Shown here piece by piece: positions 14,628 through 41,587 of a stretch of DNA of 57,637 bases. Source of the DNA: an uncultured Candidatus Saccharibacteria bacterium (GTDB taxonomy: Bacteria > Patescibacteriota > Minisyncoccia > Phycocordibacterales > UBA918); NCBI GenBank assembly GCA_964469295.1, contig CAYXYJ010000007.1, positions 14,465 through 72,101 on the forward strand. The letters run 5' to 3'. Position numbers and translations under genes: made by a program. Numbering within the stretch: the stretch's first letter is position 1; each line of letters begins with the position of its first letter. The notes below the pieces were generated by a model. It saw only the letters and a program-made list of their open reading frames with translations, did no database searches and had not been told where the DNA came from.

Positions 14628-15020
14628 ATGAAAACTCTATTTTTTTACATGTTATTAAGTTTTGTCCTTTCTGTGAACGCTGTGTATGCGTTAGAGAATC
14701 CAGGAACTGGCGGGGGAGGTGTTGGTAGTGGCTATACTGGTCCCACAACCGAAACCGTCACCCTCGAAAACCCCCTCAACAACATCAATTCCCTCGAAGA
14801 ACTGTTGGTCGCCATGCTCGATATCTTTATGACACTGATGATTCCTATCATTGTGTTCTTTATTATCTACGCCGGGTTCCGCTATGTGACTGCCCAAGGT
14901 AATCCTGGCAAAATCGAAGAAGCGACCACCACTTTTATGTACGCGGTTATTGGAGGTGTCCTTATATTAGCTGCGGTCGCCATTGCCGAAATTATCAAAA
15001 ATACCGTCGCTGCATTTTAA
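14628..15020 (+). CDS. CPR pilin-like protein (TrbC/VirB2-like)
   Basis: Signal peptide, LENPL, IIYAGFRYVTAQGNPGKIEEA, YAVIG two-TM pattern. Confidence 0.8.
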   Translation: MKTLFFYMLLSFVLSVNAVYALENPGTGGGGVGSGYTGPTTETVTLENPLNNINSLEELLVAMLDIFMTLMIPIIVFFIIYAGFRYVTAQGNPGKIEEATTTFMYAVIGGVLILAAVAIAEIIKNTVAAF

Positions 15021-15023
15021 GGT

Positions 15024-15278
15024 ATGACTCCGCGTACTCCCACAGACTTTGCCGATTTGATGAATTTTTTTATTGAATTCATCAATCTCATTATTGGGGC
15101 AATTTTTGCGCTGACGTTTTTGGTACTCATTTGGAAGTTGATTGATGCGTGGATTTTACATGTTGACGATGCCGGAAAGCGTGAAGAAGGAAAAACCATT
15201 GCGATTACCGCAGTCATTGTCATGATGATTATGCTATCGATTTGGGGTATTCTCAGTCTCTTGCGGAATTCAATCTAA
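15024..15278 (+). CDS. CPR pilin-like protein
   Basis: Two TM segments with a DAGKREEGK loop. Confidence 0.75.
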   Translation: MTPRTPTDFADLMNFFIEFINLIIGAIFALTFLVLIWKLIDAWILHVDDAGKREEGKTIAITAVIVMMIMLSIWGILSLLRNSI

Positions 15279-15317
15279 GTAACAAAAGGGTAGGGTTCTC
15301 ATTAACTTATCAGTTCT

Positions 15318-15385
15318 TATCCCTTCACTACATATTCGTAATGTAGTCGCTTGGCAGGGAATGGAGAATATGTAGTGAAGGGATA
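15318..15385. repeat. 20-bp perfect inverted repeat around a 28-nt spacer
   Basis: TATCCCTTCACTACATATTC (15318-15337) and GAATATGTAGTGAAGGGATA (15366-15385). Confidence 0.9.
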
Positions 15386-15475
15386 GGTGTCATCTTATCC
15401 CCATATTTACTCGGTATATTGAAAAAAGTCTTATTTTACGGTATACTAGCATCATTGTTATAAATTTGAATAATT

Positions 15476-15865
15476 ATGAATAAAATCTTTTCTTTTCTGT
15501 TCGCTTTCGCAATCATGGTTCCGTTTGTAGCTGGCGCTGCAGGTCAAGGTATTTTGGGTGGTGAAACTGGTACAAATAATGATCTCGGTATGTTTTTGGA
15601 AAACGTACTGACGTTTGTTAATGAAATTATCATTCCATTTATCTTGGGTATCGGTTTCCTTTTCTTTGTCTGGGGAATGTTTCAGTACTTTATCCGTGGT
15701 GGTCATAGTGATGAAGCGAAAGAATCAGGAAAATCACTTATTGTGTATGCACTCGCTGGTTTTGTTCTGATTTTTGCTTTCTGGGGTATCATCAATCTGC
15801 TTGTTGGTGCCGTTGGTAATGAAGAGTTGAAAGAAACGATTCCATCTGCAAATCTCATTGAATAA
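15476..15865 (+). CDS. CPR pilin-like protein
   Basis: Signal peptide, FFVWGMFQYFIRGG.SDEAKESGKSLIVYALAG. Confidence 0.8.
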   Translation: MNKIFSFLFAFAIMVPFVAGAAGQGILGGETGTNNDLGMFLENVLTFVNEIIIPFILGIGFLFFVWGMFQYFIRGGHSDEAKESGKSLIVYALAGFVLIFAFWGIINLLVGAVGNEELKETIPSANLIE

Positions 15866-15870
15866 TCAAT

Positions 15871-15918
15871 TCACCAAAAACAAAAAACACCCTAACGGGT
15901 GTTTTTTGTTTTTGGTGA
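15871..15918. terminator. 22-bp hairpin, likely terminator
   Basis: TCACCAAAAACAAAAAACACCC-taac-reverse complement. Confidence 0.75.
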
Positions 15919-15936
15919 TGATATACTGGTACCATT

Positions 15937-16308
15937 ATGTCGTTTCTAAATGTGGCACATGCTCAAGTATCTCCGGGAGTGACAGAAGCGGCGGAATTTG
16001 TGGCGCGAGTGAACGAGACGTTTTTGTTTCCGTTAATTGCTTTTTTAACCGCATTGGCGTTGTTGTATTTTATGTACGGCGCTTTCCTCTATATCATTCA
16101 CGCTGATGATAGTCACGCTCGGGAAGAAGGACGACGCCATATCATGTGGAGCATCATTGGCATGCTCATTATGTTGATTGCCTATACGATTTTATCAATT
16201 GCCGCGGGAACTATTGGTGTTGAAGACGAATTAGATTGTGCTAATGATCCCACTGCTGCTAATTGTGCTGGACGGGCAAGTCGTGACCTTGGATCATTTA
16301 ATCCTTAG
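15937..16308 (+). CDS. CPR pilin-like protein
   Basis: YFMYGAFLYIIHADDSHAREEGRRHIMWSIIG; C-terminal Cys pair. Confidence 0.8.
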   Translation: MSFLNVAHAQVSPGVTEAAEFVARVNETFLFPLIAFLTALALLYFMYGAFLYIIHADDSHAREEGRRHIMWSIIGMLIMLIAYTILSIAAGTIGVEDELDCANDPTAANCAGRASRDLGSFNP

Positions 16309-27356: not shown

Positions 27357-27397
27357 CAATAACAACAGGCGGCGCGAAGTGCCGCCTGTTGTTATTG
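27357..27397. terminator. 19-bp hairpin with C(GAA)G loop between convergent genes
   Basis: CAATAACAACAGGCGGCGC-GAA-GTGCCGCCTGTTGTTATTG. Confidence 0.75.
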
Positions 27398-28936
27398 TCC
27401 ATGCAATCGAAATTGTTTCGCTATGAGGGGTTCAACCGGTTGCTTGTCGTCAGTAAAAATCACATCATCAACCAAGGCGCTCTCCGGAATAGTGATGTAT
27501 CGACTATTCGCTGAAAAACTGTAGCCCGCGATTGAATGGGTAATTGTGACGTCGGGGAAAATAATTTCCTGTCCTTCGTGTCGAGCAACGAACAAAATAT
27601 TTTGCATACCACTGTCGTGCGGATTGCTCACCGGAATGATGGCAAGATTAGGGAATACCGTCTTAATGGTCTTTATGAGTGAGCCGGTCATGCTCGTACC
27701 GTAGGTATCGAGACTGCCGATGTAGTTAAAGATAGCCACTCCCTCAGGTGATAAGCGATCTTTCACCGCCGCAAAAAATTCGCTGGTGGACAAGTGGGCG
27801 GGAATAAAATGTCCACTATTCATCACATCGGAAAAGATAACATCATATTGTGTGGTAGTACTTTGGAGAAATACTCGCGCATCCACGGTATAGTGGTGAA
27901 GATTTTCACTAACCGGTAACTCGAAATAATCGTACGCAATTGGCAATAATTGTGGTTCCATTTCGACGGTATCAATGGGAATATTGGGATAGAGCGCGTG
28001 GACGTATCGAGGGACGGTAAAGGCTCCGCCACCGAGAGCAAGATAATTACGGGGGGTTGGCACCATTTTTTCGGTCAAGACAGCATATTGGGCGTACGGA
28101 AAGACAATTTGATTACTGCCGGGAATAATGGCTGATGAATGGTTGGTATCATTTTTTAAAAAACGGTACGTGGTACCGTTAATGGTTCTTTCGAACACTT
28201 CGATGTGGCTATAGAGTCCGTCCGTGCTATAGAGTAAGGCTTTTCCTGTGCTTGATGAATGGTATGACACTACAAATATCGTGCTGACAAGAGCAATAAC
28301 CACACTAGTACCAGCGACAATCAATCGTTGTGTCGTTTGTTTTCCAGTGCGCCACCACAGCATGCTAGTCCAAACGGTAAGAAACAATGCGGTATAGGCC
28401 ATTCCAGCAATCAATCCAATATACGGAATAAGAAAAAAGCCAGTGCTCAAGCTGCCGGTAATACTGCCAATTGTGCTCCAAAAAAATACCGTCCCGACCA
28501 TCGCTCCAGCCGTGTCAGAAGTCTCGCGCATGGTCAATAACTTAATCACAAACGGTGAATCAATGCCCAGGAGAAGTGCTGGCAAAAAGTAAAACGCTAC
28601 CGCTAAGACCAGTGGACCAAATTGCAAACCGAGAGCCGGAGCAACCATTGGCAAAAGCATTACTGCCATCATGATGACTAACAGTAGCAATAATCCAGCA
28701 CTGGCCAACACTGCCATCAACGTTGTTGGTTTGGGGGAGTAATCGGCTAATCTGCCACCCCAGTAATAGCCGAGACTAAGGGCGAGTAAGACCACGGTAA
28801 TGACACTCGAAATGACCGGCAGTGAACTGCCGTAGTATGGTGCTAATAATCGCACGCCAGCAATTTCGATCACGAGTACCGCCGCCCCGGTGATAAACAC
28901 TGTCGCCAGTAAGAGATACTTTTGGTTGGGAAACAT
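27392..28936 (-). CDS. Fused membrane domain / spermidine-synthase-like protein
   Basis: Multi-TM N-terminus; LALGGGAFT, DTVEME, DARVFL, YDVIFSD, IFTDDKQPVE. Confidence 0.9.
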   Translation of the reverse strand: MFPNQKYLLLATVFITGAAVLVIEIAGVRLLAPYYGSSLPVISSVITVVLLALSLGYYWGGRLADYSPKPTTLMAVLASAGLLLLLVIMMAVMLLPMVAPALGLQFGPLVLAVAFYFLPALLLGIDSPFVIKLLTMRETSDTAGAMVGTVFFWSTIGSITGSLSTGFFLIPYIGLIAGMAYTALFLTVWTSMLWWRTGKQTTQRLIVAGTSVVIALVSTIFVVSYHSSSTGKALLYSTDGLYSHIEVFERTINGTTYRFLKNDTNHSSAIIPGSNQIVFPYAQYAVLTEKMVPTPRNYLALGGGAFTVPRYVHALYPNIPIDTVEMEPQLLPIAYDYFELPVSENLHHYTVDARVFLQSTTTQYDVIFSDVMNSGHFIPAHLSTSEFFAAVKDRLSPEGVAIFNYIGSLDTYGTSMTGSLIKTIKTVFPNLAIIPVSNPHDSGMQNILFVARHEGQEIIFPDVTITHSIAGYSFSANSRYITIPESALVDDVIFTDDKQPVEPLIAKQFRLHGQ

Positions 28937-29149
28937 GGTACCTAGTATAGCAGAATATAGTGGAGATAACGGGCGGCCCTACGGGCCGCTCGTATCAATA
29001 TAAGAAAACCGTCTGACCAATAAAAGTTGGCTCGTTCGTACTTCACTGTTCGAATCCCTCTAGTCAGTGACATTTAGTCACGTACTCCCGGCGCACGCAA
29101 TAAAAATCGCCTAGGCAAATGTCTGAGTAATTTTTTATATTTGAGATTC

Positions 29150-29270
29150 GGTCACTCTCGCGGTTAAATTAGTTCACTTCGTTCCTAATTTAACTCGCTC
29201 GTGCGACCTCACCAGTCTCGGCCCTAAAGGGGACCCCGAGACTGGTTTTCGAATCCCTCCGGCGCTACAA
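29150..29270 (-). repeat. Structured dispersed element, subfamily A (original tRNA-Tyr trailer)
   Basis: Colinear with 20810-20930; loop at 29173-29184; anti-tRNA-Tyr segment at 29248-29265. Confidence 0.85.
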
Positions 29271-29413
29271 ACAGCAACGACCCAAATGCGAATGCATTTG
29301 GGTCGGCTGATCTGTGCGCCGAAATGGAAGCGGTTCGACAAATGTGTGTAGTGTAAATAAGCCTGAAATCGTGAAAATCTTGTGAATCTACCGCAAAATA
29401 GTAGGATGTCTAT

Positions 29414-29857
29414 ATGTCTGAATATAGACTCTCGCAAGAAATAGTGGCTTTATCTGAATCAGATAAGTGGGACGAAGCTCGACTTGAGTGGGAGCTTTTT
29501 CGAATGTTTGATCAAGATGATCTTGATACTTGCTTGTGTGGTCATTATCCCATAAAAGAAATATGTGTCCTGAGAAACAAAAAGAACGATAACCAGGCCA
29601 TCGTGGGTAACTGCTGTGTTCAGAAGTTTATGGGTATTTCTTCAGACAAATTGTTTGCTGCCCTTAAAAGGGTGAAAAAGGACATTGGCAAACCATTTAA
29701 CGCTGATGTTATAGAGTTTTCGTTTGAGCGTGGATATATTAGTGATTGGGAAAAGGGTTTTTATCTTGATACCTGGCGAAAGAGGGACTTGAGTGAGAAA
29801 CAGACAAAAGAAAGAGTTAAAATCAATAAGAAGATTCTGCTTAAACTATCAAAGTAA
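29414..29857 (+). CDS. Hypothetical Cys-rich (putative Zn-binding) protein
   Basis: CLCGH...C...VGNCC; ends 4 nt before the OLD nuclease start. Confidence 0.8.
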   Translation: MSEYRLSQEIVALSESDKWDEARLEWELFRMFDQDDLDTCLCGHYPIKEICVLRNKKNDNQAIVGNCCVQKFMGISSDKLFAALKRVKKDIGKPFNADVIEFSFERGYISDWEKGFYLDTWRKRDLSEKQTKERVKINKKILLKLSK

Positions 29858-29861
29858 ATTT

Positions 29862-31961
29862 ATGTTTTTATCAGTCGTAAAATTATGGAATTTCAGACAG
29901 TTTGGTTCAGTAGGATCTGAAAAAAACAGAAAACCTGACTTGCATACAACATTTGGTCCAGGGCTTAACTTGTTTGTGGGAGAGAATGATTCAGGTAAGA
30001 CGACTGTTGTTGACGCGATAAATTACATCGTTATTCCGCAGAGCTACGAAAACATGCGAATCAGGCATGATGATTTTTTTGGTGATGAAGATTGGCTAAG
30101 AATTGAATGTGTCTTTACTGGATTCACTTCAAATCAGGCTAAAAACTTCATCGAGTACTTAACAATTGATGATAAAAAAGTTTCAGAAATTGCAGCTGAA
30201 GAATTAACTGAGGATGAGCTAATAGAGAAACAGATTGCAAATCTAGAGATGACACTATTTTTGGAAGCTGAAAAAAATAGTGGAGATAAGCCTTTGTGGC
30301 ATAGGGTCAAAGTAAAAGTTGGAGATGAGGTGGTCGACTTAAGTGGTGATGTTCGATTTCAGTTTCTCAGATCAATGTATCTCAAGCCTTTAAGAGATGC
30401 AGAGAGCGAACTCACTGCTAAGCCAAGGTCAAGATTGTCACAGATTCTTCTTAAACATGATTCTTTTGAAGAGGCAAAGGGAGAAAAACACCCTCTCACC
30501 AAGGTATTTTCTGTGGCGAATACTGACATCAGAGGCTTCTTCGAAGGCGAATTTGCAGACCCTGAATCGGTACTGGATATTTTGAGTAGATTATTTATCT
30601 TGTCATCGAAAAAGGTTGAGCAAGGTCTGAATGCTGCAGATGAGGCAGAGTTAAGTTCTTTGCTTGATGAATACCATGATATTAAAACCAATAAAAATGT
30701 CTCTGGTAAAAGAGTAAGTGAACAAATTGGAGAGCACCTAAACAGGTTTCTTTCAAAGAAAAAGAGTAAACAGGCAAAGTTTGATATTTCTGATCAGCAA
30801 TTGTCACAGGTTTTGCAAAAACTTAATCTGGCTCTTGATGAGAAGCGCTCTGGCTTAGGTGCATTAAATATTTTGTTTATGAGTGCTGAACTGCTTCTTT
30901 TGGCAAGAGAGAAGTCAGCAAGTTTACAGTTGGGCATTATTGAGGAGGCTGAGGCACATCTTCATACACAAGCACAGATGAGAGTTCTTGATTACCTACA
31001 ATCGTTAGCTGACAAGAGTGCAGATTCTATGCAGCTATTCGTTACAACACACAGCACTCATATTGCTTCAAAGGTTAAGCTCAAAAACTTAATCTTGTTT
31101 AGAAATGGTAAGGCTTTCAGTATGGCGCCCAACCACACGAAACTTGAACCTCAAGATTACTCATTTCTGGAAAGATTCCTTGACGCAACAAAAGCAAATT
31201 TGTTTTTTGCTGAGGGAGTTTTAATTGTTGAGGGAGATGCTGAGAATATTTTGCTTCCCAGTCTGGCAAAGTTGATTGGCAGAGATCTTGTTTCTTACGG
31301 AGTTTCAGTTGTAAATGTGGGACATTCAGGACTCACACGATTTTCTGATATTTTCATTCGTAAAGAAGGTGAAAGTGAGCTTGATGTGCCTGTCGCAAAT
31401 ATTAAGGATCTTGATGTAAATTACAAAGATTATCTTGTAGAAGGAAAGTTAACGCTTCCTGAAAATATTGCAGAACTGGAGTTATCAAATTGGGAGAAAA
31501 AGGTAGAAGGAGAAGATCAGTGTGTGAAAAATTTTATTTCACCTCACAAAACTCTTGAATACGACTTGGCTCTAGATCAAGAGTTGAGAACTTTGTTTGC
31601 TAGGGCTGTATTTAGGATGATTCATTCTAGGCGCAAACAAGGTGAAGGGATTTTTATACAGGATGAAGCTTCGTTAAAAGCTGCAGATGAAGAGGCGGAT
31701 AATTTCATAAAAGAATCAGTGGAGGCCGGTAAAACTGACCAGCAAACAGCTTACGATTTATATAGGAAATGTAAGAAACACAAGACTCTAACAGCTCAAT
31801 TTTTTGCTCAGATATTAGAGGAATTCACACCTTCTGAACACCTCGATCCTAAGGGGCAGTTAATGTGTCGTGCAGTACAGGCTTCATTGGTCGCTAAGTT
31901 AAAACGTGGGAATGCTGGTTATTTGTTGAATGCTATTGAATATGTGACTGAACCTTTATAA
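29862..31961 (+). CDS. gajA: OLD-family ABC-ATPase/TOPRIM nuclease (Gabija GajA-like)
   Basis: GENDSGKT Walker A, IIEEAEAHLH Walker B, VTTHS, TOPRIM IVEGDAE and DLD. Confidence 0.85.
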   Translation: MFLSVVKLWNFRQFGSVGSEKNRKPDLHTTFGPGLNLFVGENDSGKTTVVDAINYIVIPQSYENMRIRHDDFFGDEDWLRIECVFTGFTSNQAKNFIEYLTIDDKKVSEIAAEELTEDELIEKQIANLEMTLFLEAEKNSGDKPLWHRVKVKVGDEVVDLSGDVRFQFLRSMYLKPLRDAESELTAKPRSRLSQILLKHDSFEEAKGEKHPLTKVFSVANTDIRGFFEGEFADPESVLDILSRLFILSSKKVEQGLNAADEAELSSLLDEYHDIKTNKNVSGKRVSEQIGEHLNRFLSKKKSKQAKFDISDQQLSQVLQKLNLALDEKRSGLGALNILFMSAELLLLAREKSASLQLGIIEEAEAHLHTQAQMRVLDYLQSLADKSADSMQLFVTTHSTHIASKVKLKNLILFRNGKAFSMAPNHTKLEPQDYSFLERFLDATKANLFFAEGVLIVEGDAENILLPSLAKLIGRDLVSYGVSVVNVGHSGLTRFSDIFIRKEGESELDVPVANIKDLDVNYKDYLVEGKLTLPENIAELELSNWEKKVEGEDQCVKNFISPHKTLEYDLALDQELRTLFARAVFRMIHSRRKQGEGIFIQDEASLKAADEEADNFIKESVEAGKTDQQTAYDLYRKCKKHKTLTAQFFAQILEEFTPSEHLDPKGQLMCRAVQASLVAKLKRGNAGYLLNAIEYVTEPL

Positions 31962-31963
31962 AT

Positions 31964-33892
31964 ATGACCAGCGATGAGATTGATATTTTAGAAATTGAAA
32001 AGATTTTACTCCCAGCAGGAGCCAGCTTTAATGATGAGAGACGAAAATTTATATTTGAAAACTCAAAAAATGTTGACCTCATTGCTTGTGCTGGAAGTGG
32101 AAAGACAACAGCTTTGCTTGCAAAATTACTATTGCTTGAACGACAACATAAAGCTAAAGATGGCATATGTGTTCTAACTCATACTAATGTCGCAATAAAC
32201 GAAATCAAAGATAAGATTTCATCTGACTCCATTCTTCTTCAATTCCCTAGCAGTTTCAGTACCATACAACAGTTTGTTGATCGTTTTCTAACTATCCCTG
32301 CATATAGGCATTTAACAGGGCACAACCTTAAGCAAATTGATACTGAAGCAGCCAATAAACGCTTTGTGAACAACCTTTATGCTCTACCTAACTCTACTGA
32401 GAAAACTGCGCTGTTTGGTTATCAAAGTTTTGGAAGAGAATGGGAAGATCGTAAAAAGGTTCTTGAAAGAGGTGTTGAATATATTATTGAAGTGGGGTCC
32501 GGTCATTTTAAATTTACAGGCAATCACAATAACAGACCAATACCTCTGAAAAACCCTAATAGTAATTGCTATAAAGCGACCAAAAAAGCAAAAGATGCAG
32601 TTTTTCTTGAAGGGTACATTACATATGATGAGGCTTATTCGCTCGCTTTTTGGTATTTAGATAAGTTTCCGTTTATTGAAAAGTGTCTTTCGGAAAGATT
32701 CCGTTTTGTGTTTGTTGATGAGATGCAAGATTCGTCAAAAATCCAAATTGATCTGCTTAAAAGAATTTTCAGACATCCTGATAATGTGTTTCAAAGAATT
32801 GGCGATCCAAATCAAACTATCTATGACACAAACAATGATAACTTGTGCGAATGGGAGCCATCAGAAAATCTGCATAACCTGAAAGGGAGTTTGCGACTTT
32901 CTACATCTACCGTTAAGGCTATTTCAGGCATTAGAAATGATTGTACAGAGGAAATAGAGGGGAATGAAAATTTACCTACAATAAATCCTCACATCATTAC
33001 TTTTAAAGAAGGTGAAGAAAATAAAGCTATTCATGAGTACAAGAATTTGCTGATAAAGCATTGGTCCGAATTAGATTACAAGGAAGGTGATCAAATAAAG
33101 ATTGTGGGTTGGACAGGGAAAGACAATGGTGATTTATGTTTGCCTAGGTATAACCCATTATTTTCTAATTCTACTTCAAAGAAATATCTTCCAAATATTG
33201 AGAGCTACAAATCTCAGTTTGAATCACATATCAGAAAGCGGGGGTCATTAAAGGCCGCCAGGTCCTTGATTCTACAAACTGCCACTCAGCTACTATTTGA
33301 GTTGGGAGTAAAAAATGAAAATAAATATTACACCCAAGTAGATGTTGAAGAGAAAATTGAGTCTCACGTGGATTTGAATCGAAGATTATTGAATCTGTCT
33401 GTAAATCTGGCTTATTCAGAAAATGCTTGGGATAGAGTTAATGAATTCATTTCAAACAATGTTTTACCACTGTTTATTCAAGATGAAAAAAGTATTGATC
33501 ATGAAAAGCTTAATGAATTCCTAAACGGTGAATCAGTCGTTTCAATTACATCTGAAGAACCTAATGATGCAGAGGATTTCTTGGTGGTAGATGATTTTGA
33601 CACAAAGATTCCGATTACGACTTCGACCATTCACTCAGTCAAAGGGGAGACTCATAAATCTACCTTGTATGTAGAGACTAAGTACCATAAATATGATTTG
33701 GAACGATTATTAAAGGGTCTCTGTGGAGGTTTGGAAAAAGCAGATAACTTAGACGGAAAGAGAAAGATGATGGGCTATGTTGCTATGTCCAGAGCGTCTC
33801 ACCTACTTTGTTTAGCGGTCCGTGATGTTGTTATTGACCAAGATTTAGAAAAGCAATTACAAGGTATTGGTTGGGAAGTGGTAAGGGCTTAG
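31964..33892 (+). CDS. gajB: UvrD-like helicase (Gabija GajB-like)
   Basis: ACAGSGKT, LTHTN, VDEMQD, IGDPNQTIY, TIHSVKGE, YVAMSRA; 2 nt after the OLD nuclease. Confidence 0.85.
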   Translation: MTSDEIDILEIEKILLPAGASFNDERRKFIFENSKNVDLIACAGSGKTTALLAKLLLLERQHKAKDGICVLTHTNVAINEIKDKISSDSILLQFPSSFSTIQQFVDRFLTIPAYRHLTGHNLKQIDTEAANKRFVNNLYALPNSTEKTALFGYQSFGREWEDRKKVLERGVEYIIEVGSGHFKFTGNHNNRPIPLKNPNSNCYKATKKAKDAVFLEGYITYDEAYSLAFWYLDKFPFIEKCLSERFRFVFVDEMQDSSKIQIDLLKRIFRHPDNVFQRIGDPNQTIYDTNNDNLCEWEPSENLHNLKGSLRLSTSTVKAISGIRNDCTEEIEGNENLPTINPHIITFKEGEENKAIHEYKNLLIKHWSELDYKEGDQIKIVGWTGKDNGDLCLPRYNPLFSNSTSKKYLPNIESYKSQFESHIRKRGSLKAARSLILQTATQLLFELGVKNENKYYTQVDVEEKIESHVDLNRRLLNLSVNLAYSENAWDRVNEFISNNVLPLFIQDEKSIDHEKLNEFLNGESVVSITSEEPNDAEDFLVVDDFDTKIPITTSTIHSVKGETHKSTLYVETKYHKYDLERLLKGLCGGLEKADNLDGKRKMMGYVAMSRASHLLCLAVRDVVIDQDLEKQLQGIGWEVVRA

Positions 33893-33913
33893 ATTTGATA
33901 TATAAATTGTTGC

Positions 33914-34324
33914 ATGAGTAATTTACTTGATTTAATAACTAAAAACTACTGTACGCTTCTTAACGTGCCAACTTCAAAATCTGCCGAAGGGCAGGCTTGG
34001 CAAATAATTGCTAATTTTTGGTCCCAGCTCTGGCCCTACTTGTTAGGATTCCTGGTCGTGGTGGTGTTGGCCGAGTTGCTGACTCGCCATAAAAATGAAT
34101 ATAACTCTGCAAATGGATTTACGCCTCAATTTAATAGATTTGTGGGGAGTGGCACATACATGGGGCTTCAGATTGGTCTATATTTTCTGGTCCATTTAAT
34201 ATTTGGAAACATTGCTTATTGTTTCCCTTGGCCGTATCTAGCTCACATAGTGGTGTTTTCGCTGACATTTTACATTCTGCATTGGATAGGATTTTGGCCT
34301 AAAAAATATAAGAGAAAGTACTAA
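33914..34324 (+). CDS. Hypothetical membrane protein (about 3 TM)
   Basis: Hydrophobic segments; 21 nt after the helicase. Confidence 0.7.
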   Translation: MSNLLDLITKNYCTLLNVPTSKSAEGQAWQIIANFWSQLWPYLLGFLVVVVLAELLTRHKNEYNSANGFTPQFNRFVGSGTYMGLQIGLYFLVHLIFGNIAYCFPWPYLAHIVVFSLTFYILHWIGFWPKKYKRKY

Positions 34325-34397
34325 ATGGTTTTGACCAAAGCATAGGCTTGTGACTACAATAAGTTTGAATCTTTGATTCTTATCAAAAATCAAACTT

Positions 34398-34697
34398 ATG
34401 GCACGAGGAGGCAAAAGACCAGGCGCCGGTCGTAAAAAAGGATTTTCAGCAATCACCGCGGAAGAGAGTCGCAAAGTTATTGCTGATCTTGTAGCTAAAG
34501 ATATTGCTCCAATTACTAAGGCCTTAATTAAAAAAGCAAAACAGGGAGATGTAAAAGCAGCTAGCTTGCTGTTTGATCGTGCGTTTGGAAAGCTTGAGAC
34601 AAAAGCTCAAAAACCATCTTTTTTCTACAATGTAGCTGATGTTCGAGAGCGATATGGATCCGGGGCAATGGCGGAGGAGCGAAAGAAGTTCAGTTAG
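34398..34697 (+). CDS. Small phage-type protein, terminase-small-subunit-like
   Basis: MARGGKRPGAGRKKG N-terminus; KAKQGDVKAASLLFDRAFGK helix. Confidence 0.55.
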   Translation: MARGGKRPGAGRKKGFSAITAEESRKVIADLVAKDIAPITKALIKKAKQGDVKAASLLFDRAFGKLETKAQKPSFFYNVADVRERYGSGAMAEERKKFS

Positions 34698-34709
34698 TCA
34701 TTTTTAAGA

Positions 34710-35243
34710 TTAGAATCCAGTCTTGAGTCCGAGTATATCTTCTCTTAACTTTTTAATGAACATAGCTTCCTTTTCGCGTAGTTCGACTACCAAAAGAGCG
34801 TTCTCTAAATTAAGTTGCTCATCAGAACTATCGCTAAGGTGCTGAGCGAAAGCTGATCCGATGACTGGTTCATTATCGTCATTGAAAATATTGTCGTACT
34901 CTCTGTATCTATCGTTCAGTAAGTCACTAATACTAGATCTTTGCTCAAAGTTATAGCCATTTCTCTTATATGCTGAAAAATACTCCTCATGTACTAAATC
35001 TAGAAACAGATGATTAGTGAGTTTGTCTGTATAAATTGGATTAATTCTTAAGTACCAAAGAAGATATGCCATGGACTCAAATTTAAAGACTTCTTTAAAT
35101 TTGCCACTCCATGGATTTACCTCACTTTCATTTTCGAGTACAACATTGTGAGCAATTAAGGCAAGTTCACTTGATACAACTAATGCTACTTTTCTCAACG
35201 CTCTTTTAAAGCGCTTGAATTTTAAAAATTTAATTATTGACAT
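34710..35243 (-). CDS. Hypothetical protein
   Basis: 177-aa ORF preceded by a structured leader. Confidence 0.7.
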   Translation of the reverse strand: MSIIKFLKFKRFKRALRKVALVVSSELALIAHNVVLENESEVNPWSGKFKEVFKFESMAYLLWYLRINPIYTDKLTNHLFLDLVHEEYFSAYKRNGYNFEQRSSISDLLNDRYREYDNIFNDDNEPVIGSAFAQHLSDSSDEQLNLENALLVVELREKEAMFIKKLREDILGLKTGF

Positions 35244-35249
35244 ACAAAA

Positions 35250-35378
35250 AGCCCGCTACCAGGTAGGACCGAAGTCCATATCTAGAGTTTCCCCCAAATA
35301 GCACAAACAAGTGACCCCTGATAACGGGTTCTTTACTTGTTTGTGACTAACTTATTCGCACCATACCGCCAGCGGGCT
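35250..35378 (-). promoter_or_regulatory. Structured leader RNA / attenuator
   Basis: AGCCCGCT/AGCGGGCT closing helix plus U5 just before the ATG; 11-bp inner helix; cUUCGg hairpin. Confidence 0.65.
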
Positions 35379-35472
35379 GTCGGGTTAGGTGACTATATTG
35401 TGTTTGTAATATTACACTTAGTTTCTTGGTCCGCAAGCGTTACTTTTCACGGAAAAGAGCTAATATAAAATC

Positions 35473-36093
35473 ATGAAGGAGCTGGAGATTGAAGATACAT
35501 GTGGTGTATGTGAGAAAATTCAGAAAATTGCTGAGGGAAGTTCTTCTGGCCAGGTGTTAACTTACCTACTTGAGACAAGCTCCAACACTCGTTTAAAGAA
35601 AGAAAGAGCATGTCTTGAAGAACTCGCAAATGAGTACCATGCTATTACTTTTGTTGGTAGGGCTGAGACGCATCTAAATAAAATAAAATATAAATTCCGA
35701 ATAAACGAGAAGCGATTTCAAAAGCATTTAAACGACGAGTGTAATCCTGAACATTTCCCTAGAAAAATTGGTGACAGAGTTCAGATTATCGCAAGCATGA
35801 GGTGGGGTTTGTTTGTAAAAGGAAGGCCTGAGTACCGATGTAGATTGTCTCCGCGTAGAATGAAATTCATTTTTAACTTAATGTATGGATCTGATGATAT
35901 TCCAACGCGAAATGGTAAGAAAATGTCTACTTCAAACAAAACTAAAGCTGTGAATATTATCAACGACCAATTCATGAGTAGTCTGGGTTTTGATAAGAAG
36001 CTTGTTGAAGGGGATGGGGGTCGTGGTTATTACTTGAATGAGCTAGTTTATATTGTTACTCCAGACCAACAATATTCCACGGAAATGGAATAA
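35473..36093 (+). CDS. Hypothetical protein with possible C-terminal winged-helix DNA-binding domain
   Basis: C-terminal ...AVNIINDQF...LVEGDGGRGYYLN resembles an OmpR-type wing. Confidence 0.6.
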   Translation: MKELEIEDTCGVCEKIQKIAEGSSSGQVLTYLLETSSNTRLKKERACLEELANEYHAITFVGRAETHLNKIKYKFRINEKRFQKHLNDECNPEHFPRKIGDRVQIIASMRWGLFVKGRPEYRCRLSPRRMKFIFNLMYGSDDIPTRNGKKMSTSNKTKAVNIINDQFMSSLGFDKKLVEGDGGRGYYLNELVYIVTPDQQYSTEME

Positions 36094-36116
36094 AATGATA
36101 GTCGAATGATTTATGT

Positions 36117-36216
36117 CAGCTCTGTACTCTCGTAAGTACGGAGCTGGTTTTCGTTAAGACTCGTCACCAGTAAGGACTCTCCAAACCAGCTCCTTGGAGG
36201 GTCCTTACTGGTTTTT
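36117..36216 (+). promoter_or_regulatory. Two-hairpin RNA switch upstream of the rep/integrase gene run
   Basis: 12-bp and 19-bp stems each followed by T-runs; 11-nt cross-complementarity between 36140-36150 and 36183-36193. Confidence 0.65.
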
Positions 36217-36219
36217 ACT

Positions 36220-36378
36220 ATGCAACTTTCTGAACAACACGTTGAAGCGTTCATTGAACTATATAAAAAACATTATGGTGTTGTTCTTGATCGTGAAGTT
36301 GCAGTCGAGAAAGGTATTCAGCTTTGTAGATTAGTAGAACTTGTTGATTTTAGTCAAAGTGAATATGAAGAAGAATAA
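36220..36378 (+). CDS. Unannotated 52-aa protein (MQLSEQHVEAFIELYKKHYGVVLDREVAVEKGIQLCRLVELV...)
   Basis: Open frame ATG 36220 to TAA 36378, overlapping the next ORF; amphipathic helical pattern; below the ORF-track size cut-off. Confidence 0.7.
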   Translation: MQLSEQHVEAFIELYKKHYGVVLDREVAVEKGIQLCRLVELVDFSQSEYEEE

Positions 36379-36679
36379 AAAATTACTTGAAAGTGTTGTG
36401 GAAGTTTTTACCTTTAAAGAAGCGGTGGTTTTGCAATACACAGGTCACTCTCTTAGATCAATTGATAAAAATAATGACATTGATTGTCCGTATATCTATC
36501 GTTTCTTTCTTAGGAGCGACACATTAGCACTGCTTGATGATTTTGGAGAAGGTACGATTATGGTCGAACCGGGTTGTTTTATTGATGCTTTGGGAAACTT
36601 ATTGGAGCAAAAAGAACGCTTTGTGGGAGGGGGTAAGAATAAAAAAGATGACAATAAAGGGCTGGATCAAATTATTTAG
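36365..36679 (+). CDS. Hypothetical protein
   Basis: Overlapping ORF in the island operon. Confidence 0.55.
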   Translation: MKKNKKLLESVVEVFTFKEAVVLQYTGHSLRSIDKNNDIDCPYIYRFFLRSDTLALLDDFGEGTIMVEPGCFIDALGNLLEQKERFVGGGKNKKDDNKGLDQII

Positions 36680-37139
36680 GAGAGAATTTGAATGGTTCAA
36701 GGATCTTTCAAATCCAGAAATAGTGTATTTACTCGCTGCACGAGTCGTTGCAGAGTGGGATAATAAAAAGGAGCAATTTGGGACTTTTGATGCAAGAATC
36801 AAAGAAATGCAGAAGATTCTCGGATGGTCTGATGGTACTATAAGCAGAGTTGGCAAATTGCTTTTGAGCAAGGGTTATTTTCATAAAACTGATGACCATA
36901 GGCGCTGGAGGATAACAAATGCAGAATTATTTTTCTCTAAGGGTGGCAGTAGTAAAAAAGCTGAAAAAATTATTTTAGATACCGAAACTAATCTTCAAAC
37001 ACACGAACTTAATCTTCAGATATCTGAATATTTTCCAGATAAGATTAAGCAAGGAATCAAGGATTTAAAGGATAAAATGAGTGTGTCTGATGGCTCTAAG
37101 AAGAAGAATCAAGAAGATAAAGAAAATACAAATAAGTAA
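36648..37139 (+). CDS. Phage-type replication initiator / HTH protein
   Basis: N-terminal GWIKLFRR resembles the GWIKLHR motif of phage replisome organisers; HTH-like LGWSDGTISRVGKLL..KGY. Confidence 0.6.
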   Translation: MTIKGWIKLFRREFEWFKDLSNPEIVYLLAARVVAEWDNKKEQFGTFDARIKEMQKILGWSDGTISRVGKLLLSKGYFHKTDDHRRWRITNAELFFSKGGSSKKAEKIILDTETNLQTHELNLQISEYFPDKIKQGIKDLKDKMSVSDGSKKKNQEDKENTNK

Positions 37140-37142
37140 AAC

Positions 37143-38981
37143 ATGGACAGATATAAAGCAAGTAAATATTTCCTATACCTAAGACGGTCCCAAGACGCGG
37201 AAGATCGGCAGATGGCATCACTTGAAGACCAGGAGTCTGAGATGGTTGCTGTTGCTGAAAAACTAGGCCTAGAAATTGTTGACGTTATTGAGGAGTCTCA
37301 ATCAGCTAAAAAACCAGGAAGACCAAAATTTAATGACATGATTGCGAGAATCCATGCTGGAGAGGCAGATGGAATTGTTTGCTGGAAAATCAATCGCCTG
37401 GCTCGTAATCCAGTTGATGGTGGTCAGATCTCATGGCTTTTGCAGCAAGGGGTAATTAAACATATTCAAACGTACTCACGTGACTATCAGCCGTCAGACA
37501 ACGTGATTATGATGGCGGTTGAGCTTGGTATGGCGAACCAGTTTGTGAATGACTTGAGTGTCGATGTGAAGCGAGGAATGAGACAGAAGGCTGAACGTGG
37601 TTGGTATCCGCAGAGGTCTCTTCCTCCTGGCTACAAGCACAATAAGGGGTATGAAAAAGGTGAGGTTGAGATTGTGAGCACGAAGGAGCTCTCAATAGTG
37701 AAGAAGCTTTTCGAGGATATGCTGACCGGCAACTATTCTGCTTCGGATATTCAGAGAAAGTGTGGCACGTATGGAATAACCGGAAGGAAGGGGCAGCCAT
37801 TACCGCTTCAAACAGTCTTTAACATTCTCACCAATGAATTTTATTGTGGGTATTACTATTGGAAAGATTCTAATGGAGAAGAGGTAAGACACAAGGGCAA
37901 GCATAAGGCTATTTTGAGCGAGGATGAGTTTAATCGGGTCCAGAGGTTGTTGGGTAAGAAAGGGAGGCCAACACGCGTTAATAAGCTAGATTTTGCGTTT
38001 AGAGGCCCATTGAATTGTGGGGAGTGCGGGTGTGCTGTTACAGCTGAAGAAAAAGTGCGTTGTGTCTGTACTGGCTGCCGCTACAAATTCTCAGCCAAGA
38101 CTAGGACTGATTGTCCTAAGTGTGGTCTAGATCTATCAGAAATGAATGATCCAAAAATATACCGAAATGTCTACTACCACTGTACGAAAAAGAGAAAGGA
38201 CTATAAGTGCACTCAAAGTGTTATTGATGAAACGCAACTCAAGAAACAGGTGTATGGAGAATTAGGCAAAGTTGAGATTGATGAGGATTTCTACAACTGG
38301 GCAGTAGCGGCCCTTAAGCATACTCACGGTGATGAGATGCAGACTCAAGGTGACATCTTGAAGGGTCTTAATGATCGTTCTGTGGCTATTCAAGCACGTA
38401 TTGATAAGTTTGTACTGATGCGTGCAGATGGAGAGATTTCAAGTGATCAGCTTGCTCGTATGACAGCTGATGAAGAGAAAAGCTTAAAAGATATTGAAAA
38501 AGAGCAGAAGCGTCTTCATGCTCGTATGACAGAGTGGTCCGCTACTGCCGACAAGTATCTAACTTTTGCTGATCGGGTCCGCAGAAAATTCAATAAAGCT
38601 TCAAATGAAGAGAAAAGAGAGATGTTGACCATGTTAGGTTCGACACTCGAAATAACTGACAAAAAATTCAGAGTTATAGTCGCGAATGAGCTTTTAGGCT
38701 TCAAAAACGTCTATGTGAAATTGGGTAAGAAATTAGGAAGGTTCGACACTCAAAAAGCCCTTGATATACAAGGACTTTCTGAACAAAAACGCTTAGTTTT
38801 TGATGAACTGTGCGCCGGGAGGGATTCGAACCTTCGTAGGCTGATGCCAGCAGATTTACAGTCTGCCCTCGTTGACCGCTTGAGTACCGACGCAATTATG
38901 TGCATGAGGTGGTCAAACCTCATCTGTGTCGTACAACTTACCACAGATTGCCACTATTTTCAAAGGGGTCTTGTGTGGTAG
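37143..38981 (+). CDS. Large serine recombinase (integrase)
   Basis: YLRRSQ catalytic Ser, SAKKPGRPKF, INRLARN, recombinase domain, Zn-ribbon (CGECGC...YYHC), coiled coil. Confidence 0.96.
   Translation: MDRYKASKYFLYLRRSQDAEDRQMASLEDQESEMVAVAEKLGLEIVDVIEESQSAKKPGRPKFNDMIARIHAGEADGIVCWKINRLARNPVDGGQISWLLQQGVIKHIQTYSRDYQPSDNVIMMAVELGMANQFVNDLSVDVKRGMRQKAERGWYPQRSLPPGYKHNKGYEKGEVEIVSTKELSIVKKLFEDMLTGNYSASDIQRKCGTYGITGRKGQPLPLQTVFNILTNEFYCGYYYWKDSNGEEVRHKGKHKAILSEDEFNRVQRLLGKKGRPTRVNKLDFAFRGPLNCGECGCAVTAEEKVRCVCTGCRYKFSAKTRTDCPKCGLDLSEMNDPKIYRNVYYHCTKKRKDYKCTQSVIDETQLKKQVYGELGKVEIDEDFYNWAVAALKHTHGDEMQTQGDILKGLNDRSVAIQARIDKFVLMRADGEISSDQLARMTADEEKSLKDIEKEQKRLHARMTEWSATADKYLTFADRVRRKFNKASNEEKREMLTMLGSTLEITDKKFRVIVANELLGFKNVYVKLGKKLGRFDTQKALDIQGLSEQKRLVFDELCAGRDSNLRRLMPADLQSALVDRLSTDAIMCMRWSNLICVVQLTTDCHYFQRGLVW
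38811..38893 (-). tRNA. tRNA-Tyr(GTA)
   Basis: Cloverleaf, loop CTGTAAA, long variable arm; lies antisense inside the recombinase ORF tail. Confidence 0.95.
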
Positions 38982-39008
38982 AGTAAGGGTACTTTAATTT
39001 GATTTCTC

Positions 39009-40073
39009 ATGGTTTCGTACCTGTTTAGATTACTGGCCTTCACGTTTGTTTTTGTCAATATTTTATTTGTTCCGGCGGCATTGGCGGAGGAGCCGATGTA
39101 TCTTGGTGAAATTAATTTTAATAGCGGGTTGGTACCCTGTGGTGGGCAAGGGCAAGAACCGTGCCAAGCCTGTCATGTGATTGATCTAACCAACGGCGTC
39201 ATTGAGTGGTTGGTGATGGTGCTCGGTACCTTGGCCGCCATTATCATTGTCTATGCCGGATTCAAATTAGTAGTATCGGGCGGGAATCATCATGCTCGCG
39301 AAGAAGCCAAAAGCATGATTACAAATATGATTATTGGGTATGTGATTGTGCTGGCGGGGTGGTTGTTAATTGACACGGCGATGAAAGCGCTCTTGGATGA
39401 GGGTGAATTTGGTATTTGGAATCAAGTGCAGTGTGTAACGCAGCCAGACGTATTATGGACCGATCCCGCTACTTTTCTTAGTGGTACCAATGGTTGGAAT
39501 TCTACCGGAGTCACTGGCGTTGTGGGAGTAGAGTGTGGGTACGTGAGAGGTCCGGCCGGTATGCCAACGACCGAACGCGATTGTTCGGTTGCCATCGCGC
39601 AGTGTGAGGCGGTACCTGGAATAGCGACCGTTTCACCTGATGGTGCATCCGTTACTTGTGCACCGGCGCCAGTGCAAGGAAGTAGTGGCGGAGGAGTGCA
39701 GTGTAATCCTGGTAACACGGCGTGTAGTGTCAGTGCCTTGCAAGGGTATGGACTAAATGCGCAACAAGCGAATATTATGTCTTGTATTGCAATGACGGAA
39801 AGTTCTGGGATTCCGAGCATTCCGCCTTACAATCTTGCTCATCCCGAATCAAATTCGTCAGCATGTGGTACATTTCAGATTGTACGGACAACGTGGAATA
39901 GCTACGCTAGTCAAATATCGACTGATTGTCGTGACCATGCTTCCAGTTGTCAAAATGCTCGCTGTAACGCTCAACTAATGGTAGCGTTGGTGCGTGCCAG
40001 AGGATATAATGATTGGACCTGTCCAGGTTGTAATAGACGAGCGGCGGCCTGTGTTTCCCGGTATGGTGGCTAA
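39009..40073 (+). CDS. CPR pilin-like domain fused to a lytic-transglycosylase/lysozyme-like domain
   Basis: N-terminal IVYAGFKLVVSGGN...EEAKSMITNMIIG; C-terminal IAMTESSG, SACGTFQI..TTW, CN. Confidence 0.75.
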   Translation: MVSYLFRLLAFTFVFVNILFVPAALAEEPMYLGEINFNSGLVPCGGQGQEPCQACHVIDLTNGVIEWLVMVLGTLAAIIIVYAGFKLVVSGGNHHAREEAKSMITNMIIGYVIVLAGWLLIDTAMKALLDEGEFGIWNQVQCVTQPDVLWTDPATFLSGTNGWNSTGVTGVVGVECGYVRGPAGMPTTERDCSVAIAQCEAVPGIATVSPDGASVTCAPAPVQGSSGGGVQCNPGNTACSVSALQGYGLNAQQANIMSCIAMTESSGIPSIPPYNLAHPESNSSACGTFQIVRTTWNSYASQISTDCRDHASSCQNARCNAQLMVALVRARGYNDWTCPGCNRRAAACVSRYGG

Positions 40074-40085
40074 TAATTATCTGGC

Positions 40086-40574
40086 ATGAAAAAAATCATC
40101 ATTATTATTTTTGTCCTATTTATTCCTATTGGGGTTATGGTGGGGTATAAAAAATTTTCTAACCAATCTATTGTGGACGACACCAGTCCGGTGCAATATA
40201 CAGACCTTACCATTTCATTGACTCCAGCCCAATCAGATAAAGTGATTGTTGGCAATTTTCTGCAGCGACCCGATGTAACGGAAGATCGGCACAACAGCAT
40301 GTATTATTTTTTAGGAAATACTTTCGACAGTACTACCGCACCATATGTCGTTACCTTTGATGCTGTTGGTCGATATTTTACTGTTGCACTTTTACAATCG
40401 CCATTTGGTGAATCTCGTCGTGCTGCAGAGCAATATTTACTCGGTGTATTAGACATCAGTGAAGCAGAAATGTGCACGCTTTCCTATGCCGTAAGTGTCC
40501 CGGGGTACGTTTCAGAATCTGCTTCTGGTGAGGATTATCGATTTAGTTTCTGTTCAGACGCAAAGCAATTGTAA
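40086..40574 (+). CDS. Membrane-anchored extracellular hypothetical protein
   Basis: N-terminal TM; Cys pair; between two pilin-hydrolase fusions. Confidence 0.75.
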   Translation: MKKIIIIIFVLFIPIGVMVGYKKFSNQSIVDDTSPVQYTDLTISLTPAQSDKVIVGNFLQRPDVTEDRHNSMYYFLGNTFDSTTAPYVVTFDAVGRYFTVALLQSPFGESRRAAEQYLLGVLDISEAEMCTLSYAVSVPGYVSESASGEDYRFSFCSDAKQL

Positions 40575-40579
40575 TCAAT

Positions 40580-41506
40580 ATGAAATTATTATTTTGGACA
40601 GTGGGAGTGTTCGGACTACTATTTTTTATGAGTCCGGATGTGTCTCTCGCCCAAGGATTGGCGGATTTGGCACAATGTTCTGGAACCGATTGTTCGGCAT
40701 GTAATATTGTTTATTTGGCTAATGGTGGCATTAAATGGCTTGTGGGCTTTTTGTGTGTGTTGTGCGCGGCGCTCATTGCGTGGGCGGGATTTGGATTAGT
40801 GATGTCTGGTGGAAATCGACATGCGCTTGATGAGGCGAAAAATACTTTCACTAATGCCATCATTGGTCTGATCATTCTTTTGTCCGCTTGGTTGATTGTA
40901 GATACCATCATGCGGGCGCTGGTAGGTAACGACGAAAATCCAGGTTCAGTGCAAACTGTTAACGGCTGGCTTTTCTGGAGTGATGTGCAATGTCAGGTGC
41001 AAGAGGAACCAGAATATACACCGCACTCTAATGATGATATTAGTATGGTGCCAATGGTGCCTGGCCCAGCGGGTATGCCAGTTGCTGGTACCGGTGCAAA
41101 TTGTCCTGTTCCTGATGCTGGGGGCATGGTATCGATTCCCGGACAAGAAAGGTTTGTCGCGACACCTGATACGGTATCTCGTTTTGTACAAATGCGTACG
41201 GCAGCTGCGGCTGATGGTATTACATTAACTGTTACCAGTGCGTATCGTTCGGAAGCAGAACAAGTACAGATTTGGACCAGCCGAGGATGTCATAATAATC
41301 CTTCTCTATGTAGTGGAAGAGCAGCTATGCCTTGTAGCTACGGTGGAAACGGCTCCAATCATAACTCTGGTGTAGCACTTGATATTAGTGTTGGACAATC
41401 AGGCAGTGCTACATTTAATTGGTTAAAGAGAAATGGCGGAAGATATGGATTTTATAATAACCTAGATGCTCGAGATCCATTTCATTGGTCACCATCAGGA
41501 CGGTGA
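40580..41506 (+). CDS. CPR pilin-like domain fused to an M15B (VanY-like) D-Ala-D-Ala peptidase
   Basis: IAWAGFGLVMSGGN...DEAKNTFTNAIIG; SAYRS..EQ, SNHNSGVALD, PFHW. Confidence 0.85.
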   Translation: MKLLFWTVGVFGLLFFMSPDVSLAQGLADLAQCSGTDCSACNIVYLANGGIKWLVGFLCVLCAALIAWAGFGLVMSGGNRHALDEAKNTFTNAIIGLIILLSAWLIVDTIMRALVGNDENPGSVQTVNGWLFWSDVQCQVQEEPEYTPHSNDDISMVPMVPGPAGMPVAGTGANCPVPDAGGMVSIPGQERFVATPDTVSRFVQMRTAAAADGITLTVTSAYRSEAEQVQIWTSRGCHNNPSLCSGRAAMPCSYGGNGSNHNSGVALDISVGQSGSATFNWLKRNGGRYGFYNNLDARDPFHWSPSGR

Positions 41507-41513
41507 TTGGTGT

Positions 41514-41587
41514 TGGCGAGCCCACGAGGATTCGAACCTCGGTCAACGGTTTTGGAGACCGTTATTCTACCACTGAACTATAGGCCC
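41514..41587 (-). tRNA. tRNA-Trp(CCA)
   Basis: Cloverleaf, loop CTCCAAA, encoded CCA. Confidence 0.95.

Follow-up and report, generated by a model that had tools for sequence, protein, structure and literature searches.

What does a bacterium gain by joining a pilin of the type IV secretion kind to an enzyme that cuts the cell wall? This question is raised by a cassette of three genes, here called A, B and C, in a 57,637-nucleotide (nt) stretch of patescibacterial contig CAYXYJ010000007.1 (GCA_964469295.1), referred to below as the window. A and C each encode a predicted secreted protein in which a two-helix module of the T4SS_pilin family (PF18895) precedes a putative peptidoglycan hydrolase, and B, the gene between them, encodes a small anchored protein that accompanies A. 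The explanation we favor, and hold tentatively, is that A and C are pilin-tethered wall hydrolases that serve a type IV secretion system and its pilus, in the role of VirB1, PrgK and CwlT, with B controlling or positioning A. The original prediction for this locus had proposed modular enzymes, displayed on a pilus or anchored at the surface, that cut both the glycan and the peptide of a host wall; its outline of modular, membrane-anchored, outward-facing proteins, with the glycan strand as the predicted target of A and the peptide stem as that of C, is carried forward here.

Over 110 N-terminal residues A and C share 45% identity (BLASTP, E 5e-27), and beyond these the two proteins are unrelated, as expected of the paralogues with a common N-terminal module that had been predicted, and the motif proposed for that module, G..LV.SGGN...EAK....N.IIG, is present in both. 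Each hairpin scores over the curated gathering cut-off of 26.6 bits that defines membership of PF18895 (Table 1), the family that groups the VirB2/TrbC-like pilins of type IV secretion. AlphaFold models built on 54-sequence alignments (mean predicted local distance difference test score, pLDDT, 82-83) place a signal helix ahead of two helices of ~35 residues with a four-residue turn between them (residues 2-24, 54-89 and 94-128 in A; 2-17, 40-75 and 80-115 in C), and the hydropathy peaks agree. Both proteins begin with a Sec-type signal peptide (MVSYLFRLL...AALA/EEP in A and MKLLFWTV...VSLA/QGL in C, the slash marking the predicted cleavage site), and in A this region, with a hydropathy peak over residues 1-27, is present in homologues although its sequence conservation is low (0.30). 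The pilin-type module with two transmembrane segments thus stands as regards family and helix number, but not as a pilin of the type IV pilus, a reading that we rejected because the class III motif G/[FM]xxxE is lacking and a Sec signal peptide is followed by two helices. Matches to the related conjugation families were weaker: TrbC (PF04956) matched C at E 0.053 and a free-standing gene at 14628 at E 4.8e-4, all under its cut-off, and was matched at E <= 1e-3 by 13 of the 136 closest relatives of the module, while the NCBIfam 'Mbov_0395 family pilin-like conjugal transfer protein' gave sub-threshold matches to it.

The correct start of both genes matters to this reading. The public gene calls are shorter than the open reading frames (ORFs) described here (A as P0001, 325 amino acids (aa); C as P0121, 292 aa), since both begin at internal methionines; the segments that they miss, 39009-39095 in A and 40580-40627 in C, take both signal peptides with them. 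Homologues align from residue 3-5, which indicates that the longer ORFs are the real genes and that the ATG at 39009 is the start of A. Given a signal peptide and two membrane helices, as predicted, both enzyme domains would come to lie outside the membrane.

Two features suggest that the hairpin does more than hold an enzyme in place. Measured by majority residues, conservation is 0.59-0.67 in the hairpins and 0.64-0.66 in the enzyme domains, against 0.30-0.35 in the signal peptides and 0.23-0.29 in the linkers, so that the hairpin is conserved as strongly as the enzymes and is probably more than a mere anchor. It is also flanked by cysteines (C44, C52, C55 and C142 in A, 39138-39434; residues 33, 38, 41 and 138 in C), three before helix 1 and one after helix 2, that are 81-100% conserved in the A and C families and in 136 representatives of the module. 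If all four are oxidized, at least one disulfide must join the two outer ends of the hairpin, which suggests a disulfide staple in A and C. Such a putative staple would recall, by different chemistry, the head-to-tail cyclisation of TrbC/VirB2 pilins.

The C-terminal domain of A carries the motifs AMTESSG and ACGTFQI and belongs, by its best matches, to the lysozyme superfamily, as had been predicted. The match to SLT_3 (PF18896) has an E value of 9.5e-6 and a score of 26.4 bits against a cut-off of 27, that to SLT (PF01464) 14.7 bits against 21.3, and PF18896 is precomputed on many orthologues of A. Across 54 homologues E264-S265 and G287-x-F289-Q290 are invariant. In a profile search against the PDB, E264 aligned to Glu35 of C-type lysozyme; the position of Asp52 is taken by Ala285, with no second acid. 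Lytic transglycosylases were the top 3 and most of the top 21 Foldseek matches (1qte, probability 0.93), at E 0.17 or worse overall, and the block-mean pLDDT is ~90 or higher from residue 231 onward. Taken together, these comparisons argue that A is most likely a single-Glu lytic transglycosylase or a g-type-like muramidase. The region between hairpin and enzyme varies in sequence, its four cysteines being retained in only 37-39% of homologues, and a local hidden Markov model (HMM) built from it matched one relative and no others. AlphaFold gives it beta strands with block-mean pLDDT values of roughly 60-87, so it is not simply a spacer; the description of the connecting segments as Cys/Gly/Pro-rich linkers therefore falls short for the partly folded residues ~146-229 of A, whereas ~141-172 of C are predicted to be disordered.

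The peptidase domain of C is assigned with more margin. It matches VanY (PF02557) at E 2e-12 (47.5 bits, cut-off 25) and VanY-B (5hnm) at E 4e-12 in the PDB profile search, and Foldseek places 5hnm first (E 3.5e-6, probability 1.0), followed by LdcB, VanXY and Ply500. In 54 homologues R223, S259, H261 and D268 never vary and the conservation of D299 and H302 is at least 90%, so that in C, as in A, the catalytic residues are kept, and the comparison of models by AlphaFold and Foldseek that had been proposed as a check returned a VanY-B fold for C and lytic transglycosylases as the best matches of A. The fold, zinc and catalytic residues are those of VanY-B, LdcB and the phage endolysin Ply500, which, unlike the pilin-tethered C, are soluble or simply anchored. 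The M15B assignment of the original prediction is thereby upheld, but its D,D-peptidase label is not: the sequence does not reveal D,D-specificity, since C has equally good matches in the L,D-carboxypeptidase LdcB and the L-Ala-D-Glu endopeptidase Ply500.

Between these two genes lies B, which has the N-terminal hydrophobic anchor expected of the anchored partner gene that had been predicted there. Its conserved domain of ~110 aa has two invariant cysteines (C130 and C156; motif FSFC) and found no match in Pfam, NCBIfam or the PDB profile search. With local HMMs, B was found to follow the pilin-SLT gene immediately in 40 of the 41 GTDB loci that could be assessed. B is the obligate companion of A, with the control or positioning of A as its most likely task.

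The cassette occupies a fixed place in the chromosome. The order tRNA-Tyr, A, B, (C), tRNA-Trp, MiaA, ParB recurs in dozens of Paceibacteria/Kaiserbacteria species, and a close relative with a 478-kb contig (L001) has the gene order of the window: IF2, an aminotransferase, ClpB, two genes, tRNA-Tyr, an A-like gene, a B-like gene, a pilin-M15_4 gene, one further gene, tRNA-Trp, MiaA, a methyltransferase, ParB, RelA/SpoT and TopA. Cassette and neighbors are also found together in the complete Kaiserbacteria genome L003 and in L046 and L047. A scan of GTDB species genomes returned 42 loci with identities of A down to 26-27%; a tRNA-Tyr or tRNA-Trp gene lies at most 600 nt upstream of A in 28 of them, and a third pilin-fusion gene lies directly after B in 14 and upstream of A in one more (L021). 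The G+C content of the cassette, 0.43-0.49, matches the genome. We regard A, B and C as a core operon passed on vertically in a patescibacterium of the Paceibacteria/Kaiserbacteria type. ARAGORN places the two tRNAs where the original prediction had them, on either side of the cassette, but the idea that the cassette is exchangeable has to be given up: the same tRNAs and housekeeping neighbors accompany it down to 27% identity, and its G+C is genome-like. Membership of a conjugative or integrated element was likewise rejected, as the one island nearby (29112-38809, described below) ends at the 3' end of tRNA-Tyr and the cassette, which lies beyond it, is syntenic everywhere. As a separate observation, an unannotated extra gene (151-239 aa) follows the third cassette gene in L001 (12546-13142), L003 (12328-12783) and L047 (11023-11742); the window is without it.

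The three ORFs run in the same direction, 12 nt apart between A and B and 5 nt between B and C. Upstream of A, positions 38810-38981 are 88% identical to L001 9820-9986, and 38872-38899 give a weak sigma-70-like match, by consensus only. The organism, an ultra-small bacterium, comes from activated sludge or wastewater. One cDNA contig crosses the A/B junction and exact-match metatranscriptome contigs lie within C; these few low-depth metatranscriptome contigs are weak evidence that A and B are co-transcribed and that C is transcribed.

What is fixed about the third gene is its position and its pilin module, which is 50-60% identical among relatives; its enzyme differs. At this position VanY domains are found in the window, L008, L040 and L046, M15_4 in L001, L009, L010 and L018, M15_3 in L004, NlpC/P60 in L006, L007 and L047, a CHAP-like domain in L003, and unrecognized sequence in L005 and L011. 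Since the NlpC/P60 and CHAP folds are unrelated to M15, these are true domain replacements in place. The same holds more widely. An exhaustive search with the N-terminal module returned 8394 clusters at 50% identity (E <= 1e-3), and 134 of the 136 closest single-module representatives match PF18895. The recognizable C-terminal domains on these 136 are almost all wall hydrolases (SLT 14, SLT_3 11, M15_3 9, VanY 6, M15_2 4, NlpC/P60 4, Amidase_5 1, CHAP 1), and the survey of C-terminal diversity that the original prediction had called for accordingly finds many wall-hydrolase classes on the module across Patescibacteria. Among metagenomic proteins, some (P0262, P0264, P0275, P0278 and P0281) have 6-17 tandem hairpin modules each and reach 2761 aa; these could be concatenated pilins or artefacts of gene calling.

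Labels such as 'Type IV secretion system pilin/Lysozyme like domain' are already given to these proteins by automated annotation, so the architecture is present in databases. A full-text literature search, with most subscription journals outside its coverage, found papers on PF18895 pilins and none on pilin-hydrolase fusions; in the two papers closest to the subject, PF18895 hits count as VirB2 homologues and nothing more. As far as we have found, then, the literature describes neither the joining of pilin hairpin to hydrolase, nor the obligate pairing of A with B, nor the exchange in place of the third gene's enzyme, though databases show the architecture.

Dedicated wall hydrolases of secretion systems offer the closest functional comparison. 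VirB1 of Agrobacterium, PrgK of pCF10, TraG of pIP501, CwlT of ICEBs1 and TcpG of pCW3 are, like A and C, membrane-tethered and extracytoplasmic; they combine lysozyme or SLT activity with a variable peptidase (CHAP, NlpC/P60 or LytM) and open the wall locally for the apparatus, the Gram-positive hydrolases pairing a glycosidase with a peptidase of varying class (PMC12102498). The present proteins differ from these in that the two activities reside on two proteins, the tether is a VirB2-like hairpin and not a plain N-terminal helix, the peptidase in this genome is of the M15B class, the genes lie outside any secretion-system operon, and the constant partner B has no equivalent among them. With VirB2, TrbC and TraA pilins and with the PF18895 arrays (SEML1_0014-0019 in Southlakia epibionticum) they have in common a signal peptide, two long hydrophobic helices and a short conserved loop; known pilins, however, have ~70-130 residues and no enzyme, whereas A and C are extended by 190-225 residues and have the four-Cys pattern. 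In PF18895 proteins, polymerization is so far presumed. The concept of a pilin module with a displayed C-terminal globular domain has a counterpart in the bimodular type IV pilins PilB and PilC of Streptococcus sanguinis. Those pilins are of an unrelated class: they have a class III signal peptide and are assembled by type IV pilus machinery, and their modules are adhesins and not wall hydrolases.

A further parallel comes from Southlakia epibionticum ML1, where, in the transposon-sequencing (Tn-seq) and structure tables of PMC10633639, SEML1_0006 and SEML1_0007 belong to an essential cluster and lie by VirB4 and six PF18895 pilins. According to these tables SEML1_0006 is a lysozyme-like/Cys-peptidase protein and SEML1_0007 ends in an M15B-fold (Hedgehog/DD-peptidase) domain, the pair being essential for epibiotic growth. 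They differ from A and C in size (643 and 1113 aa), in standing directly beside VirB4 and in belonging to the class Saccharimonadia, and the tables list no PF18895 module in either (PMC10633639). PF18895 arrays have been described in Patescibacteria, and two genomes that bear the cassette, L004 and L017, are listed as VirB4-positive (Table S1, PMC12102498). The window has an array of its own, of four genes (Table 1). Three exceed the PF18895 cut-off, at 39.9, 31.9 and 33.4 bits; three of the four, as measured, are 20-25% identical to the module of A, and they are without the four-Cys pattern of A and C. These free-standing pilins could be the major subunits with which A and C would co-assemble. 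No secretion-system core gene was found beside the array (14628-16308).

In the mechanism that we propose, A and C would be exported by Sec and their signal peptides probably cleaved, after which the VirB2/TrbC-like hairpin would hold them in the membrane with both ends outward, probably stapled by a disulfide. The C-terminal enzymes would thereby come to lie in the zone of the wall, where A would cut the glycan strand with a single catalytic Glu, like lytic transglycosylases and g-type lysozymes, and C, as a zinc M15B peptidase, would trim or cut the peptide stem. The hairpin would most likely dock the enzymes to, or into, the type IV secretion system that these organisms carry and its VirB2-like pilus, and cutting would then be limited to where the apparatus crosses peptidoglycan. 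The substrate may be the cell's own wall or that of a host.

Several observations weigh against this explanation. Among the 47 ORFs of the window scanned with Pfam (at least ~110 aa), VirB4, VirB6, VirD4 and PrgI are absent, and up to 10 kb from the cassette L001, L003, L046 and L047 have no secretion-system core gene either. The tie of PF18895 to experimentally proven VirB2 pilins is indirect, running through the naming of the family and sub-threshold matches, since a profile of the hairpin searched against PDB sequences returned designed helical proteins only and no pilin; full-length Foldseek searches with the models of A and C gave matches dominated by the enzyme domains. For A, the SLT_3 score is slightly below its cut-off and the Foldseek E value is weak. 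The RNA contigs are few and of low depth, and DNA carry-over is a possible source of them. Deep conservation in the core genome fits a housekeeping autolysin equally well. Nor, to our knowledge, has such a pilus been seen in Paceibacteria.

A second explanation, which we regard as unlikely but the best of the alternatives, would make A and C minor pilins, co-polymerized with the free-standing pilins, whose enzymes along or at the tip of a conjugative-type pilus cut the peptidoglycan of a host to make a port for feeding or transfer, while B holds A in check or shields the producer. With the signal peptide and two helices, a domain fused to the C-terminus of a VirB2-type hairpin would end outside the membrane, the hairpin is strongly conserved, and the invariably adjoining, anchored B resembles an immunity or lock protein. 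Close relatives swap the peptidase and keep the pilin module, a pattern also of enzymes that track varied targets, although peptidases vary just as normally among secretion-system hydrolases whose target is the wall of the producer itself. Exchange with the host by way of the secretion system and its pilus has been proposed in reviews (PMC12857230). Against this, the deep conservation and vertical inheritance of A and B set them apart from typical arms-race effectors. From the structures of F- and T-pili, moreover, a globular domain of 130-220 residues would be hard to fit into a VirB2-type helical lattice unless its carrier sits at the tip or is very rare. In its fullest form, which we consider doubtful, this line of thought would turn the patescibacterial pilus into an 'armed' filament: minor subunits of the A and C type would bring interchangeable wall-cutting heads to the sacculus of the host and open a feeding port, B would be the lock or immunity protein of the glycan-cutting head, and the 'missing VirB1' would be hidden among genes counted as VirB2.

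Somewhat less probable is that A and C are housekeeping autolysins that remodel the cell's own sacculus in growth, division and turnover, with the hairpin as the lineage's preferred anchor and B as a regulator akin to the activators or inhibitors that act on other autolysins. The fixed core-genome place beside IF2, ClpB, MiaA, ParB, RelA and TopA in every relative examined and the absence of secretion-system genes nearby favor such a role, M15B enzymes such as LdcB are ordinary enzymes of wall maturation, and so small a genome needs some autolysins. A generic anchor, however, would not match the catalytic domains in conservation, nor would it keep the loop residues S90, G92, K101, N106 and G110 and the four-Cys pattern across thousands of clusters. 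The third gene is missing in most distant relatives and its enzyme class changes in close ones, which would be odd for an enzyme essential to maturation, and the same module builds the pilin arrays of the essential secretion-system cluster in S. epibionticum. Finally, it is improbable that A (and C) are antibacterial effectors against competitors or hosts with B as cognate immunity protein at the producer's surface, even though A and B are strictly adjacent (40/41 loci), B is anchored facing the compartment of A's enzyme domain and wall-hydrolase effectors with adjacent immunity genes are known in bacteria-killing type IV and type VI systems, for B matches no known inhibitor or immunity family in Pfam, NCBIfam or the PDB profile search, the A-B pair is single, at one conserved locus, and neither orphan immunity genes nor polymorphic arrays accompany it, C lacks such a partner, and A stays anchored, with no recognizable C-terminal secretion signal or release site.

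Mobile DNA does adjoin the cassette, on the other side of tRNA-Tyr, as a 9.7-kb island (29112-38809) of low G+C (0.36-0.40) that is absent from L001 and ends exactly at the 3' end of that tRNA. As L001 9723-9787 corresponds to window 29046-29111 and L001 9820-9986 to window 38810-38981, the island is an insertion. It encodes the Gabija defense proteins GajA and GajB, a large serine recombinase and several genes with no assigned function. The final ~57 codons of the recombinase are host DNA (38810-38981), running antisense through tRNA-Tyr into the conserved region before A, and integration thus sets the C-terminus of the recombinase. Only short, chance-level direct repeats flank the island or the cassette, as expected with a serine recombinase. 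At the island's left edge, L001 shares the 66-nt stretch 29046-29111, and the plus strand has two GTTCGAATCC-like (tRNA T-arm-like) motifs at ~29240-29270; these may be remnants of earlier integrations. The island's left-hand neighbor is a minus-strand gene (27392-28936) for a polytopic membrane protein of 514 aa, whose C-terminal domain weakly resembles spermidine synthase.

Table 1. Features of the pilin-hydrolase cassette and its surroundings, in positions of the window.
Feature	Positions	Strand	Description
Gene A	39009-40073	+	354 aa; predicted signal peptide, T4SS_pilin hairpin, variable middle, lysozyme/lytic-transglycosylase-like domain
A signal peptide, residues 1-26	39009-39086	+	Sec-type, ends ...AALA/EEP; predicted cleavage site
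A hairpin, residues 57-128	39177-39392	+	PF18895, 36.9 bits; conservation 0.59
A middle region, residues 146-229	39444-39695	+	Variable; conservation 0.23, columns 46% gaps
A enzyme domain, residues 230-354	39696-40070	+	Putative lysozyme superfamily (SLT_3/SLT); Glu264 at 39798-39800; ten invariant Cys
Gene B	40086-40574	+	162 aa; N-terminal membrane anchor, variable spacer, conserved domain
Gene C	40580-41506	+	308 aa; predicted signal peptide, T4SS_pilin hairpin, disordered linker, M15B (VanY/LdcB-like) zinc peptidase
C hairpin, residues 43-115	40706-40924	+	PF18895, 34.5 bits; conservation 0.67
C peptidase domain, residues 173-308	41096-41503	+	Predicted Zn ligands H261 (41360), D268 (41381), H302 (41483); R223; D299
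tRNA-Tyr (GTA)	38810-38893	-	ARAGORN; conserved neighbor upstream of A; 3' end is insertion point of Gabija island
Intergenic, presumed promoter of A	38894-39008	+	Mostly conserved with relative L001
tRNA-Trp (CCA)	41514-41587	-	Conserved neighbor downstream of cassette; 7 nt after C
PF18895 pilin array, four genes	14628-15020, 15024-15278, 15476-15865, 15937-16308	+	Pfam and local HMM
GajA	29793-31961		E 7e-172 (Gabija)
GajB	31964-33892		E 4e-149 (Gabija)
Large serine recombinase	37143-38981		Pfam; crosses island/host junction

Much of bacterial diversity belongs to the Patescibacteria, whose members seem to live on other cells, and in the one patescibacterial species tested both the type IV secretion system and the VirB2-like pilins that go with it are essential. 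A pilin module that occurs on many classes of wall hydrolase, here at a fixed core locus and with an obligate partner, offers a handle on what they do and a set of defined proteins to localize. The fusions suggest where the 'missing' VirB1 function lies, and published counts of 'VirB2 homologues' based on PF18895 likely include enzymes. They pose the question of whether a conjugative-type pilin hairpin targets enzymes to the apparatus or to the host; if the filament is indeed armed, pilin-hydrolase fusions of this kind would open the port through which epibionts feed.

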